Shown: positions 1,364-15,658 of the stretch, piece by piece
Layout: each line of letters opens with the position of its first letter
Position numbering within the stretch: the first letter of the stretch is position 1
From: an uncultured virus (IMG/VR IMGVR_UViG_2841260384_000002)
Taxonomy: Duplodnaviria; Heunggongvirae; Uroviricota; Caudoviricetes
Virus record (IMG/VR): IMGVR_UViG_2841260384_000002
Length of the DNA stretch: 64,000 nt
Direction: 5' to 3' (one strand)
Translations under genes and position numbers: made by a program
The notes under the pieces: generated by a model
What the model was told of the DNA's origin: nothing
Seen by the model: only the letters and a program-made list of their open reading frames with translations
The model's database searches: none

Positions 1364-1566
1364 AGCCTCCTGTGATATTTTTTCTCATTCTGGTCTTGCC
1401 TCATCATTAATAAAATGATCTTATCTGCAGTATCACAAGCATGTTTTATTTCAGCTTCAGTGCATGGTCGATTTTTTACACTTGCAGCTAACTTGCCTAA
1501 TTTAATATCGAATTCAGTTAATAATTGTTCCTCGGGCGTCCAAGAGGTTAGTTGTGGTTGTTTCAT
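1360..1566 (-). CDS. Hypothetical phage protein
   Basis: 68 aa ORF coupled to xis. Confidence 0.6.
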   Translation of the reverse strand: MKQPQLTSWTPEEQLLTEFDIKLGKLAASVKNRPCTEAEIKHACDTADKIILLMMRQDQNEKKYHRRL

Positions 1567-1635
1567 GGCGGCTACTCATTATTGAATAAACCACCATGTT
1601 AATTATTACTAAAGAACAAAACTGATTAAGCTTAA

Positions 1636-1806
1636 TCAGTTTTTAGCCGGTATAACCGAATCAACCGGGTAACACTCTGCGATATTCCCTTTGCCGGCTT
1701 CAATTTCTCTATCGATTAAACAATTAATTTCATCAGGATAGATATAGCCATATGGCTCAAACTGGCAATTCATTGCACTGCATACGAGTAAAAATAAGCC
1801 AAACAT
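1636..1806 (-). CDS. DUF1482/YdfD-like small protein (not in ORF track)
   Basis: Read by hand: MFGLFLLVCSAMNCQFEP...ECYPVDSVIPAKN, 56 aa; start overlaps upstream stop (TAATG). Confidence 0.65.
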   Translation of the reverse strand: MFGLFLLVCSAMNCQFEPYGYIYPDEINCLIDREIEAGKGNIAECYPVDSVIPAKN

Positions 1807-1973
1807 TATTTCCCACCTTGCTGTTTCGATACCGGTGGCTGTATTTCAATTTTGATATTTGCCGGCAAATCATAGGAGACTTTGCAACGGCGGTCAGTTG
1901 AAATAAAACCGTATGATCCATCGGGAAGGGTGATTTTTACTTCCTGGTCTTTTTGATGTTCGTGTCTTAGCAT
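1806..1973 (-). CDS. 55-aa protein, possible distant CsrA-fold RNA-binding protein (not in ORF track)
   Basis: MLRHEHQKDQEVKITLPDGSYGFISTDRRCKVSYDLPANIKIEIQPP...; preceded by AGAGGCAAGACCA-ATG. Confidence 0.6.
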   Translation of the reverse strand: MLRHEHQKDQEVKITLPDGSYGFISTDRRCKVSYDLPANIKIEIQPPVSKQQGGK

Positions 1974-2002
1974 TGGTCTTGCCTCTTTCGTGACATGTCA
2001 CG

Positions 2003-2182
2003 CTAGTGAATAATAGGTCTAGTGACAGGGTAGCCAAGTTGAAGTAATACGGCTTTTTTTACCATTAATAGCGTATGTTCTTCTTGGGTTGTCACATGCT
2101 CAGTTGTATCTGTAGACCACTCTACGCTGCACTTATTGCTTTCTTCATCGTGAGTAATAATCACTTCAAGTTTCATAGCCAT
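2003..2182 (-). CDS. Hypothetical 59-aa protein (not in ORF track)
   Basis: MAMKLEVIITHDEESNKCSVEW...PIIH, AGGAGAG SD upstream. Confidence 0.6.
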   Translation of the reverse strand: MAMKLEVIITHDEESNKCSVEWSTDTTEHVTTQEEHTLLMVKKAVLLQLGYPVTRPIIH

Positions 2183-2226
2183 AATGTCTCTCCTGACAAT
2201 GCGCCCATTTCTGGGCGCTATAGGTA

Positions 2227-2727
2227 TTAACGAACCATCAATGAACGGTCACCAGTTTCCAAGTGAGCACCGGGAACGTCGATGCCGTTTTCGATAGCCT
2301 CTTTAATGGCTTTTTTGTCGGGTGCTGTAATGGTTTGAACATCGACTAACTCATTAGGCAGTGCATCTTCATTATCAATGATGACACGAACAACACCAGC
2401 GCGAGCCGTGAATGTGTTTTTAGTTGTTTTTAACTTATCCAAGCCTGAAGTTAACAAGCAATCCAAGGCATATTTTTTCAGGCTCTTAACCTGATTTTCG
2501 AATGACTTTTTACGGTCTGCTAGACGTTTGGATTCTTCATCCAATGTTTTGGCTTGACCTTCTAAATTACGGGCATGAAGCATAATTGCATCAAGCTTAT
2601 CGCCTAGCTCACCTTCGATACCGACCAACGTATCGGCGATATCTTCGGCGGTAAACTCGCCAGTTTCGACGAGTTGTTGTAATTTGCTGTAGTCAGCAGC
2701 CATTGCAATAGCAGTTGTCTTGGTCAT
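2227..2727 (-). CDS. Siphovirus Gp157-family protein
   Basis: Coiled coil then PDKKAIKEAIENGIDVPGAHL C-terminus. Confidence 0.85.
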   Translation of the reverse strand: MTKTTAIAMAADYSKLQQLVETGEFTAEDIADTLVGIEGELGDKLDAIMLHARNLEGQAKTLDEESKRLADRKKSFENQVKSLKKYALDCLLTSGLDKLKTTKNTFTARAGVVRVIIDNEDALPNELVDVQTITAPDKKAIKEAIENGIDVPGAHLETGDRSLMVR

Positions 2728-13426: not shown

Positions 13427-13443
13427 TTCAAGAGGCAAGACCA

Positions 13444-13782
13444 ATGGCTAAATCAGCCGCAGAACGCAAGGCGGAGCAACGTAAACGGCAAAAGCAATCT
13501 GGAGTTACTAAGATTGAGTTATTTCTAGATGAGCAAGAGTTGGAAATGCTACAGAAAAATTGCGCTCTTCGTAGACCAGGAAGAGAACCTTATGACGTAT
13601 CTGAATACCTCTCTATGCTCATTCGAATTGATGACCGTTCACTGAAATCTGTGATTGAAAAGTTATCCGAGCACCGCTGTAAAAAGTGTGGTGATAAATT
13701 ACCAGTTACTGAGTGTTGCATGGATGGTGACAGCGAATGTTGGTTAACAAGAGGCTGGCATGAACTGAAACTGGTTATATAA
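13444..13782 (+). CDS. Hypothetical zinc-binding phage protein
   Basis: MAKSAAERKAEQRKRQ..CKKCG..C..C; motif RBS. Confidence 0.75.
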   Translation: MAKSAAERKAEQRKRQKQSGVTKIELFLDEQELEMLQKNCALRRPGREPYDVSEYLSMLIRIDDRSLKSVIEKLSEHRCKKCGDKLPVTECCMDGDSECWLTRGWHELKLVI

Positions 13783-13860
13783 CCATATTTACTATATAAT
13801 TTATCTATTGGTCTGAACACCCAATTCTAAACACTTGCTGTGTCTACTGAGAGAAAAAGT

Positions 13861-14454
13861 ATGGCACAGCATGGCTTTATCAAAATGTCTAACGATACTC
13901 TTGTACCTGCTAATCCAGCTGCGAGAGATTTTCTGCATTCAAAAATCAAATGTGGTGATGTGCTTTATGCTGATTTTAAGAAAGCACGAAACCCACGATT
14001 CCACCGTAAATACTTTGCACTACTCAATCTAGGTTATGAATACTGGGAACCAACCGGCGGTACCATTTCACCTGAAGAAAAAGAGCTAGTACGTGGTTAC
14101 GTTAAATTCCTCGCTTATTACACCGATAATGATGATGCCCTCCAATCTGCCGCAGATGTTTATCTCGATGATATAGCACAGAAACGCGCCCACAATATAT
14201 CAGCGGCTAAATCCTTTGATGCTTTCCGTTATTGGGTAGTAGAGCAATCTGGACATTATGAAACCTTTGAAATGCCAGACGGTAGCCTACGTCGTGTCGC
14301 TAAATCAATCAGCTTTGCCAAAATGGATGACCTAGCCTTTGGCGAACTCTACAAAGCCACTCTCGACGTGCTTTGGAACTTCATTCTATTCCGTAAATTC
14401 CCAACCCAAGAAGCTGCTGAAAATGCTGCAGCTCAGTTGTTCGATTTCACCTAA
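13861..14454 (+). CDS. DUF1367 family protein
   Basis: RNPRFHRKYFALL, KSISFAKMD. Confidence 0.85.
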   Translation: MAQHGFIKMSNDTLVPANPAARDFLHSKIKCGDVLYADFKKARNPRFHRKYFALLNLGYEYWEPTGGTISPEEKELVRGYVKFLAYYTDNDDALQSAADVYLDDIAQKRAHNISAAKSFDAFRYWVVEQSGHYETFEMPDGSLRRVAKSISFAKMDDLAFGELYKATLDVLWNFILFRKFPTQEAAENAAAQLFDFT

Positions 14455-14468
14455 TTGGAGCAAGGAAT

Positions 14469-15332
14469 ATGTTAGAAATTTTCAAAGATAAGAAGTATCA
14501 CGTTGTGAGTTTTTCAGGAGGCAGAACATCAGCCTATCTCACTTACTTGTTAAAACAAATAGGGGAAAAAGAAAGTCTTAATGTGAAATTTTTATTTATG
14601 GACACGGGAGCTGAGCATCCTAAAACATATGAGTTTATTCGTAACGTGGCTAAGAATTGGAACATTGATCTTGTGTGTCTGCGACTTGTTGTTGATCCGA
14701 AACTGGGGAAGGCGAATACATATAAAGTTATTAGCATTAATGAAATATGTCATGACCTACAGCCTTGGGTGGATGCTTGCAGCAAATATGGCACGCCGTA
14801 CATTCATGGTCCATTTTGTACTAGAACAATGAAGCTAGAAACCTTTGAGCGATATTGCAGAGAAACCTTTGGTGATGATTATCACACATGGATTGGCATA
14901 AGAGCCGATGAACCCAAACGCTTAAAACATCGAGATAACATTTCTTACCTAGCTGATATCAGTAACTTTGATAAACAAGATGTACTGAACTGGTGGAGGA
15001 ACCAATCATTTGATCTTGATATTCCAGAGCATCTTGGTAATTGCGTTTTTTGCATTAAGAAAGGCGTGAATAAGATTGCACTGGCAACTCGTGATGAACC
15101 GAATTTAGCTAAGCAATTCTTAGATGTTATCACTAGTAAATCTGTAAGGACTGTAGAACGCAGGAAGCAAGAAAATAAAATTATGTACAGAGGAAATCTT
15201 TCTTTAGAAAACATCATTGAAATGTATTCAGCGCAAGAATATGAGGAGATTGCTGCAACTATAAGAGGAATGAAAGGGTATGAGTCAGGATCATGCTCGG
15301 AATCGTGCGAAATATCAGAGTTAATGAATTAG
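14469..15332 (+). CDS. PAPS reductase-family (PP-loop) protein
   Basis: VSFSGGRTS, MDTGAEHP, GIRADEPKR, GNCVFC. Confidence 0.85.
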   Translation: MLEIFKDKKYHVVSFSGGRTSAYLTYLLKQIGEKESLNVKFLFMDTGAEHPKTYEFIRNVAKNWNIDLVCLRLVVDPKLGKANTYKVISINEICHDLQPWVDACSKYGTPYIHGPFCTRTMKLETFERYCRETFGDDYHTWIGIRADEPKRLKHRDNISYLADISNFDKQDVLNWWRNQSFDLDIPEHLGNCVFCIKKGVNKIALATRDEPNLAKQFLDVITSKSVRTVERRKQENKIMYRGNLSLENIIEMYSAQEYEEIAATIRGMKGYESGSCSESCEISELMN

Positions 15333-15343
15333 AGGCAAGACCA

Positions 15344-15658
15344 ATGACCAAAAAATCAAAGACCAAAGAAGACAAACAGTGGCTATCAGATGTTGCAGAA
15401 CTTGGCTGCATTTGCTGCCGTAATATGGGGTATGGAGCAAGCCCCGCGGAAATCCATCATGTAAGAACGGGGCAGGGAATGGCGCAGCGAGCTAGCCATA
15501 AAGAGGTTTTACCGTTATGCCCTCCTCATCACCGAGCTAGCTATGATACCGGCTTTCATGCGGCTCCAAAAACATGGCAAGAAATTCACGGCACGGAAGC
15601 GGAATTGCTCGAGCAAACCAAAATTGAAGTAATGGCATTACGCGCCTGTCGCGTCTAG
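15344..15658 (+). CDS. Ref-like HNH nuclease
   Basis: GCICC..AEIHH..LPLCPPHH; motif RBS fixes start at 15344. Confidence 0.8.
   Translation: MTKKSKTKEDKQWLSDVAELGCICCRNMGYGASPAEIHHVRTGQGMAQRASHKEVLPLCPPHHRASYDTGFHAAPKTWQEIHGTEAELLEQTKIEVMALRACRV

Follow-up and report, generated by a model that had tools for sequence, protein, structure and literature searches.

A start-codon motif repeated in the early region of a lambdoid prophage and its putative antisense small RNA partner

Introduction

The start-associated sequences (SAS) of the cluster K mycobacteriophages are short asymmetric motifs with a Shine-Dalgarno core that lie a few nucleotides from the ATG starts of non-structural genes, and four cluster K genomes are described as carrying one lone copy that points the other way and precedes no gene (PMC3203893). 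Their partner is unknown, and in the available text of a 2025 paper their role is still called unverified (PMC12699233). Here we describe a motif of comparable anatomy, GAGGCAAGACC, in a 64,000-nucleotide stretch of DNA (hereafter the window) from an uncultured Caudoviricetes virus (IMG/VR record IMGVR_UViG_2841260384_000002). The motif is repeated in the early region of a lambdoid prophage, which also carries a predicted small RNA (sRNA) gene with the exact complement of the motif in its 5' part. We hold it to be moderately probable that the motif is a standard start cassette, the sequence of which is fixed as the target of this sRNA, and that the sRNA pairs with the cassettes and regulates the genes behind them.

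Several phage systems bear on such a proposal. The C4 RNA of phages P1 and P7 is a small phage antisense RNA that acts on repeated target sites, while in the virulent phage T4 the proteins RegA and RegB act on the ribosome-binding site (RBS) regions of many early mRNAs, where the sites are degenerate, and bring about their joint shut-off. The modular theory of lambdoid phage evolution holds that short conserved boundary or linker sequences lie at gene borders. Lambda OOP and P22 sar are small phage RNAs that pair at or near the RBS of a phage mRNA and affect the choice between lysis and lysogeny; a 2025 review of phage sRNAs lists both as cis-acting on one gene each and, in its available text, assigns phage antisense RNAs either a single phage gene as cis target or host genes as trans targets (PMC12197685).

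IsrB-1 and IsrB-2 are validated sRNAs of the Salmonella Gifsy prophages, encoded by identical genes in two prophage regions and giving RNAs of 88 and 94 nt. Their genes are placed between sbcA (an exonuclease gene) and its neighbour, opposed to both and overlapping them as cis-antisense, and the RNAs are starvation-induced (PMC2330248). Expression of IsrB from Gifsy-2 has been reported in lysogens (PMC7067206), and the RNA is not mentioned in the available text of the 2025 review (PMC12197685). The E. coli RNA named 'IsrB/AzuCR' was set aside as a different RNA from Salmonella IsrB.

Results and Discussion

The motif forms the start cassette of early gene blocks

Exact matches to GAGGCAAGACC numbered eight in the window against 0.04 expected, a count reached by none of 100 shuffles. 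Four of them lie on the minus strand (1392..1402, 1975..1985, 4735..4745 and 5120..5130) and four on the plus strand (9141..9151, 12190..12200, 13432..13442 and 15332..15342), and all are oriented with the transcription of two divergent early operons of the prophage. These are the same positions and strands that a sequence-only reading of this DNA had listed as always operon-sense, and its remark that none was noticed in the late genes or prophage 2 was borne out, as the scan of all 64 kb found no exact copy past 15342, in the late genes or in the rest of the window. By PHROG annotation, the leftward genes comprise int, xis, a Mu Gam-like gene, a 668-aa exonuclease, an 'endonuclease' and a cI-like repressor, and the rightward genes cro, a cII-like gene, an O-like gene, a DnaC-like gene, DnaB, NinB, a PAPS-reductase-like gene and a Q-like antiterminator.

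Six of the eight copies (1975, 4735, 5120, 9141, 13432 and 15332) have the extended form AGAGGCAAGACCAATG and a seventh, at 12190, directly adjoins an ATG, which agrees with the earlier count of six extended copies and seven abutting a start codon; at copy 1392 the ATG lies 3 nt farther downstream. At six sites the motif fills the whole stop-to-ATG junction of a real gene in the form stop..GAGGCAAGACC(A)ATG, the genes starting at 1973, 4733, 9153, 12201, 13444 and 15344. These genes are preceded by gaps of 11-29 nt and are mostly the heads of blocks of overlapping genes, which are presumably translationally coupled: the exonuclease is followed by the Gam-like gene, the phrog_2465 gene by O, DnaC and DnaB, and orf57 by three more genes.

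In the leftward operon, copy 1975 is the start cassette of a 55-aa gene (1806-1973, phrog_2482) and copy 4735 that of the 668-aa exonuclease gene (2727-4733), with the Gam-like gene coupled behind it. In the rightward operon, copy 9141 serves a 74-aa gene (9153-9377, phrog_2465) heading the O-like/DnaC-like/DnaB coupled block, copy 12190 a 57-aa gene (12201-12374) heading a coupled block of four genes, copy 13432 a 112-aa gene (13444-13782, phrog_536, annotated as a transcriptional regulator) and copy 15332 a 104-aa gene (15344-15658, phrog_1588) just before the Q-like gene. The first G of copy 15332 is the last base of the preceding stop codon, and copies 9141 and 13432 have 26 nt in common.

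Copies 5120 and 1392 are without a real gene start. Copy 5120, hereafter the cis copy, is the antisense of the sRNA seed and has only a 4-codon open reading frame (ORF) behind it, and in a Rouxiella relative the cis copy is followed by no ATG at all. Copy 1392 falls within the final codons of ORF 1360-1566, and behind it come AGAATG and a 14-codon ORF overlapping the start of xis; in relatives the same site starts various real genes.

Three partial copies had also been pointed out, and all three are present. The first, AAGAGGCAATCTAATG at 2725..2740 (-), stands at the start of the Gam-like gene, and its first 9 nt complement the single-stranded linker of the sRNA. The second, AAGGCAAGACC at 5768..5778 (-), has one mismatch and lies in the leftward leader at no gene start, and it is exact in two relatives (G006 and G011). 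The third, GCAGCAAGACC at 1121..1131 inside int, is present with two mismatches and is within chance level, since the window holds 17 matches at ≤2 mismatches against 9.6 expected. The leader copy and the cis copy are thus two exact or near-exact copies that serve no gene start, and we count them in favour of targeting by the sRNA.

Directly upstream of copy 1975 lies GTGACATGTCAC (1987-2000, -), a perfect 12-bp palindrome found in the window and in many relatives; relatives without it carry an unrelated flank upstream of the motif. It may be a putative protein-binding site.

The motif belongs to a phage lineage and not to its hosts

In the nearest genome (G001, 4.1 Mb) all eight exact copies were located inside 12.4 kb, and one stretch likewise held every copy in Proteus sp. 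FME41 (7/7), a Providencia metagenome-assembled genome (7/7), Photorhabdus heterorhabditis (3/3) and Rouxiella silvae (6/6). Each of these five whole genomes, from four genera, has its exact copies inside a single stretch of ≤15 kb, and a reversed control pattern gave 0-2 matches in them. A scan of the genome and related prophages had been proposed by the sequence-only reading; in the five genomes no copies lay outside the prophage, and a host-wide translation signal is thereby ruled out. Six virus records carried 7-8 copies each, always in two divergent groups. The motif is a property of the phage lineage, and this lineage is that of lambdoid prophages of Morganellaceae and Yersiniaceae.

A 15-mer scan recovered at least 214 stretches among virus contigs. 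The same scan of genome contigs gave at least 127 stretches, which are estimated to be mostly chance singletons in unrelated taxa (~1,100 expected in 596 Gb). Two recurrent matches among them were rejected as coincidence, the flanks being unlike the phage cassettes: in Pollutimonas bauzanensis (L034, L041, L057, L066 and L130) the 15-mer GAGGCAAGACCAATG lies in a GC-rich element repeated on five contigs, and in Verminephrobacter (L092 and L115) it lies in a duplicated gene start. Megablast of window positions 1-16000 against the phage collection returned no match.

The 11-mer is exact in Rouxiella and Photorhabdus despite strong divergence of the flanking genes, which argues for direct selection on the motif sequence. 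Such selection could act on a self-sufficient strong start site or on a site bound by a phage or host protein, with an effect on translation that requires no RNA partner, a role of the kind put forward for SAS. GAGG with an 8-nt A/C-rich spacer is a well-spaced RBS, the cassettes stand at uncoupled junctions heading coupled blocks, an open frame of ≥40 codons follows 183 of the 230 15-mer matches in virus records (35 have <10 open codons behind them), and a sequence unused by host genomes fits a phage-encoded factor. An RBS, however, needs no fixed spacer sequence, and the cis and leader copies are conserved all the same with no gene to serve; no candidate RNA-binding protein turned up, though no dedicated search was made. 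With the RNA gene described below also to be accounted for, we regard this explanation as improbable.

A structured RNA gene carries the complement of the motif

The predicted sRNA of ~116 nt (~5102..5217, +) is antisense to copy 5120 and to the leftward early operon, and its 3' half is IsrB-like. Its 5' part, CAUUGGUCUUGCCUCUU, exactly complements the motif together with AUG, and the stretch 5116-5132 is the complement of AAGAGGCAAGACCAATG. In the 12 early regions that were examined, the anti-motif complement lies every time (12/12) in a conserved, structured and terminated RNA gene, which a protein acting alone at the cassettes leaves unexplained. RNA recognition, one of the possibilities raised from the sequence, thereby gains a candidate partner in an antisense sRNA with a seed that co-varies with the copies (see below), binding being predicted.

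The predicted promoter (5067..5095, +) consists of a -35 element TTGTGC (5067-5072), a spacing of 17 nt and a -10 element TAAAAT (5090-5095), and it overlaps the RBS and start of gene 4746-5078 on the opposite strand. A TAnAnT -10 hexamer (TAAAAT, TATATT, TATAAT or TATACT) was found 17-18 nt from TTGTGC in 50 of 51 distinct sequences, with an extended TG in 21; conservation of the -35 element says little, because it overlaps the start of gene 4746-5078. From its predicted 5' end the RNA would fold into hairpin H0 (5102-5123, with the 3' arm UCAUUGGUC), the single-stranded linker UUGCCUCUU (5124-5132), hairpin H1 (5133-5152, loop UUUGGUCG), hairpin H2 (5160-5187, loop UUAGCUUUGGUCGGCGAC, which holds GCUUUGGUCGG) and a perfect terminator (5195-5217), all on the plus strand.

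To this fold we aligned 124 instances from the window and related loci, of which 37 were distinct (alignment A1). Among the distinct sequences 98.1% of cells were paired, and compensatory two-sided changes occurred in 14 of 35 pairs; these values were equalled in none of 500 shuffles, and in slid controls no more than 54% was paired. Pairing of H0 was 100% on the sRNA strand and 74.5% on the complement, and that of H2 95.5% against 69.1%. The structure is placed on the plus strand only, because of its many G-U pairs. The locus thus has a promoter, a stable structure and an intrinsic terminator on one strand, as is typical of a trans-acting sRNA, on the basis of predictions and covariation and not of transcript mapping. 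Contigs assembled from RNA libraries span much of the early region, including 4537-5670, and neither support nor contradict expression of the sRNA.

The predicted sRNA is an IsrB relative below the Rfam threshold

With relaxed Rfam thresholds, isrB (RF01386) matched 5091-5216 (+) below its cut-off at 30.3 bits (E 0.051 in 20 kb, 0.0013 in 501 nt), and the corresponding score in G001 was 30 bits. When 151 genomes of the order were searched for RF01386, G001 alone matched, short of the cut-off, and the 14 control genomes gave no match. Both the H2 loop GCUUUGGUCGG and the terminator CCCACUUCGGUGGG (AACCCACUUCGGUGGGUUUUUUU) fall within the alignment. The 3' hairpin characteristic of the family (loop GCUUUGGUCGG), with the terminator GCCCACUUCGGUGGGC and a U run behind it, is kept in the 37 distinct sequences, which were partly selected by that pattern. 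Compared with the isrB model, the RNA of the window has 46 nt in place of 9, and this insert contains the anti-motif seed (CAUUGGUCUUGCCUCUU) and hairpin H1. The location also corresponds to that of the family, the plus-strand sRNA being situated beside the exonuclease gene 2727-4733 (-) with 4746-5078 (-) as the neighbour gene. About 25 loci with a Salmonella-like sRNA 5' part had no motif copy and no repeated complement of their own sRNA. Judged by these alignments, the predicted prophage sRNA is a below-threshold, extended relative of IsrB.

Complementarity singles out the motif copies

Between the sRNA and the trans copies, 17-18 contiguous pairs are possible at five of seven, running from A(A)GAGG through AAUG(A), and 12-13 at the other two; the seed is in this way complementary to several mRNAs at their RBS. 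The sRNA was co-folded with 55-nt segments around 27 early starts and with the leader site, the unfolding cost being paid. The net energies were -13.0 to -24.8 kcal/mol for the seven trans copies and -14.4 kcal/mol for the leader site, followed by the O-like start (-11.3 kcal/mol) and the Gam-like start (-10.6 kcal/mol), which holds the 9-mer AAGAGGCAA; the other 18 starts ranged from -0.2 to -7.6 kcal/mol. RNAduplex over all 275 ORF starts was too noisy for target ranking, as it allows long loops, and co-folding was used instead. Outside the early region the 9-mer AAGAGGCAA, a complement of the sRNA linker, has a lone copy at 41231-41239 (-) that may be due to chance.

In the leftward leader, CCGACCAAAGCTA (5780..5792, -) is a 13-nt complement of the H2 loop and lies 1 nt from the partial motif AAGGCAAGACC. 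Four nucleotides after the partial motif there is a boxB-like hairpin, AGCUCGGAAAGACGGGCU (5746..5763, -), and this GAAAGA hairpin is a possible nutL. Farther upstream in the leader (5800-5900, -) we observed a long inverted repeat CTGTTATGTCG ... CGACATAACAG, then TGAATTTTT, with a third ACCAAAGCT (5865-5873) in the loop; it looks like a terminator or a structured leader RNA.

A second type of complementarity involves hairpin loops. The mRNA-sense hairpin CACG-UCAGACCAG-CGUG (9113..9129, +) lies 11 nt upstream of copy 9141, and in relatives its stems covary around a GACCA loop. Of 323 distinct motif contexts, 102 have a hairpin with a GACCA loop, such as CACGC-CCGACCA-GCGUG, GCGC-CUGACCA-GCGC and GCGG-ACGACCA-CCGC, that ends 0-30 nt upstream of the motif, and in the window such hairpins precede copy 9141 and the cis copy. 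Since H1 and H2 present complementary UUGGUC loops, a loop-loop first contact between the sRNA and these upstream hairpins is plausible. That they might be N-type boxB sites was also considered and set aside, because the interval from cro to the cII-like gene contains no hairpin of this kind.

Seeds and sites covary in sister phages

In some sister phages both partners, seed and sites, have changed. Loci were collected by two scans that did not use the motif, one for the 3' domain of the sRNA (92 loci) and one for the antisense of the neighbouring gene start (at least 120 loci), and both uncovered sRNA genes with other seeds. The 192 loci collapsed to 123 distinct ones. The UUGCCU sRNAs (94 loci) were accompanied by 402 C-type (GAGGCAAGACC) and 2 A-type trans sites, and the UUUCCU sRNAs (29 loci) by no C-type and 111 A-type (GAGGAAAGACC) trans sites, so that seed and site agree at 513 of 515 trans sites. 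Five loci with the seed GUUGGUCUUUCCUC had no GAGGCAAGACC and carried 4-6 copies of GAGGAAAGACC at homologous places. Among the 22 sites of sRNAs that end in CCUA, 6 have TAGG, which occurs at 2 of the 493 sites of the other sRNAs. The Rouxiella sRNA reads CCUCUGUUUACG, and three of its five trans sites have ACA before GAGG, two of them as CGTAAACA-GAGG. A seed complementary to several mRNAs at their RBS and co-varying with those sites is a further feature of trans-acting sRNAs that was found here.

The same data bear on the idea that the sRNA acts only in cis on the overlapping leftward transcript, in the manner of OOP or sar, and that the other copies are unrelated to it and shared through duplication of the junction. 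The cis duplex would be complete over ~116 nt against 12-18 bp for the trans duplexes, and the known lambdoid antisense RNAs are listed as cis-acting in the available text of the review (PMC12197685). The genes behind the copies, though, are unrelated and have only 11-26 nt in common, because of which descent by duplication would need strong purifying selection on the junction alone; and, apart from the two exceptions above, every trans site matches the seed type found in the same phage. Action in cis alone is in our judgement very improbable.

Cassettes coincide with mosaic joints

Recombination had been named as another cause of the conservation, and it is in part upheld. In the comparison of the window with G001, homology blocks end at 1391, 1987/1989, 13430 and 15330, which coincide with copies 1392, 1975, 13432 and 15332. 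The PAPS-reductase-like gene (14469-15332, +; phrog_33262, E 6e-155), situated between NinB and copy 15332, is an insertion that ends exactly at this copy and is missing in G001 at that place; the 878-bp gene is present or absent exactly at 15330, and a contig from the RNA libraries joins 14451 to 15330. Comparison with 11 relatives, which are kin, gave 150 block ends. The eight copies had 42 of these within 20 nt, or 5.25 per site, and 21 other gene starts had 33 nearby, or 1.57 per site, the remaining 75 lying elsewhere; breakpoints are thus ~3 times commoner per site at motif junctions than at other gene starts. Copies 5120, 9141 and 12190 had 0, 0 and 1 block ends, respectively. The cassettes often mark module borders.

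These joints speak for an interpretation of the motif as a recombination linker. Related phages would exchange early blocks in register through homologous or microhomology recombination between identical 15-26 bp junctions, the motif would be maintained and homogenised on that account, and its overlap with the sRNA would be incidental. Besides the coincidence of block ends with four copies and their excess per site, one and the same downstream gene can be joined through the motif to various unrelated upstream flanks, and vice versa, and the 26 nt common to copies 9141 and 13432 would suit such exchange. Selection for such swapping is indirect, however, and would hardly keep 11 of 11 bases unchanged at 3-8 sites in four genera while the flanking genes drift to ~66-76% identity. 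The strict sense orientation, the fixed distance to the ATG, the leftward-leader copy and the GACCA-loop hairpins are left unexplained, three of the eight copies are nearly free of breakpoints, block heads are module borders whatever their sequence, and the counts from relatives that are kin are not independent. We rate a linker role as an improbable explanation. The identical junctions may still have a role in module exchange alongside their targeting by the sRNA.

Proposed mechanism

Among these explanations we favour the sRNA-targeted start cassette. The cassette would comprise the Shine-Dalgarno GAGG, the fixed spacer CAAGACCA and the AUG at the heads of early gene blocks. Pairing of the sRNA in vivo would cover both the Shine-Dalgarno sequence and the start codon and keep ribosomes off, and the duplex would possibly invite cleavage by RNase. 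We read the sRNA as a coordinate repressor, because pairing across the Shine-Dalgarno sequence and the AUG only hinders initiation. It would lower together the exonuclease/Gam block, the O/DnaC/DnaB block, the nin-region blocks and the gene before Q, and the leftward leader would be a further two-part site. The UUGGUC loops of the sRNA may meet the GACCA loops just upstream of some targets as a first contact.

From the expression of Salmonella IsrB in lysogens, and from the leftward promoter being directed towards the sRNA gene, we infer that the sRNA is produced in this lineage and accumulates while the repressor is active, setting a threshold against leaky early expression, and that the leftward transcript uses it up on induction. 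Firing of the leftward promoter would yield a fully complementary transcript that consumes the sRNA and frees the other targets. If this is true, a single prophage RNA would be a compact post-transcriptional master switch for the replication, recombination and nin genes.

The sRNA and the cassettes could further form an RNA-based immunity, by which the sRNA of a lysogen silences its own leaky early genes and also the replication and recombination genes of superinfecting relatives with the same cassette, whatever their repressor type. We put this forward as a speculative and rather unlikely extension. If true, the seed variants UUGCCUC, UUUCCUC, UUUCCUA and others would be specificity groups that diverged to escape each other.

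A number of observations weigh against regulation of the cassettes by the sRNA. On the side of the RNA, the isrB match of 30.3 bits is below the gathering cut-off of 35, and no Rfam family reaches its cut-off anywhere in the window. The promoter scan built into the tool gave TTAAAA-18-TATCAT instead of the promoter above, with a start inside the seed that leaves ~8 nt of it, and the predicted fold sequesters half of the seed (CAUUGGUC) in hairpin H0. The contigs from the RNA libraries (four runs, X1-X4) give no strand, ends or level and may contain DNA, and both the sRNA and its 5' end are predictions. Because the loci were gathered with patterns containing parts of the sRNA gene, several invariant columns of the alignment are invariant through this selection. 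Co-purification of Salmonella IsrB-1 with Hfq was weak, with 2 vs 4 reads in the available text (PMC2515195), and the searched literature on IsrB, as far as its text was available, names no IsrB target. On the side of the covariation, some rare variant-seed groups match their sites only in a 10-nt core, the agreement at 513 of 515 sites may stem from only one or two evolutionary events among related phages, its counts then not being independent trials, and concerted evolution of the repeated junctions by recombination would give the same pattern. The C-type and A-type lineages amount to natural compensatory variants, which makes the system directly testable.

Other features of the early region

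Some neighbouring features of the prophage were also recorded. A 385-aa gene (6397-7554, -; phrog_4225, annotated as 'endonuclease') begins 9 nt after the cI-like repressor gene, and a terminator-like hairpin lies near 6330-6360, after it. The place directly after cI in lambda is that of rexAB. By this analogy of position, the gene is a candidate for a defence or exclusion gene expressed in the lysogen.

Beyond the sRNA terminator, the stretch 5220-5750 (~530 bp) contains a 70-aa ORF (5519-5731, -) without a PHROG match and an ORF on the opposite strand. It is missing in the relatives G006 and G011, and also in RNA-library contigs (X1, depth 34.6) in which 5222 is linked to 5750 through 14 other letters. 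Immediately behind the Q-like gene, 16272-16352 (+) matched the Rfam family isrJ below threshold (25.2 bits vs 37, E 0.62); in Salmonella, isrJ and isrK are located in the Gifsy-1 region (PMC2330248).

Comparison with known systems

Literature searches with the motif strings and for phage sRNAs at early-gene RBS and for IsrB yielded no description of such a system among the matches listed. The papers listed for the motif strings dealt with other subjects, mostly GPX4/ferroptosis and in one case plant DNA breaks. Of the RNAs already described, IsrB-1 and IsrB-2 of Gifsy-2 and Gifsy-1 are the closest to the prophage sRNA, being likewise encoded in the leftward early region, beside an exonuclease gene and in antisense to the adjoining genes (PMC2330248). 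The 3' domain is common to both, with the hairpin loop GCUUUGGUCGG followed by the terminator CCCACUUCGGUGGG, but the prophage sRNA carries an added 5' module of seed and H1. OOP and sar each act on one gene in cis, whereas the prophage sRNA has six to nine putative sites in two divergent operons, formed as a standard cassette.

T4 RegA and RegB resemble the proposed sRNA in that one phage factor acts at many early RBS, and differ from it in being proteins with degenerate sites, against an exact 11-17-mer here. The boundary or linker sequences of lambdoid phages resemble the cassette in coinciding with mosaic joints, and differ in that the cassette is an oriented start site with a complementary RNA. 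The occurrence of cassettes at such joints links a regulatory element to lambdoid module swapping.

The likeness to the cluster K SAS that the sequence-only reading had noted extends to the anatomy and not to the sequence. Like the motif, SAS and extended SAS (ESAS) lie near the start codon in one orientation, at non-structural genes only and with a host genome that lacks them, and they precede unrelated gene families (PMC3203893). Upstream inverted repeats accompany about half of the SAS sites and a subset of the motif copies; the ESAS repeats were judged unlikely to be RNA hairpins by Pope et al. (PMC3203893), in contrast to the covarying hairpins found here. SAS number 11-19 per genome against 7-8 copies of the motif, and they differ from it in sequence, host phylum and phage type. 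Their consensus GGGATAGGAGCCC (PMC3203893) is not matched by GAGGCAAGACC at ≤2 deviations. The motif is therefore not a member of the SAS group, and the likeness is anatomical only. A complementary RNA gene is present for the motif, and no partner is known for SAS. By analogy, the cluster K SAS, the partner of which has been unknown since 2011, might likewise be accounted for by a phage RNA that matches a standard start cassette, and in this respect the sRNA-cassette system offers a checkable idea for the function of SAS in mycobacteriophages.

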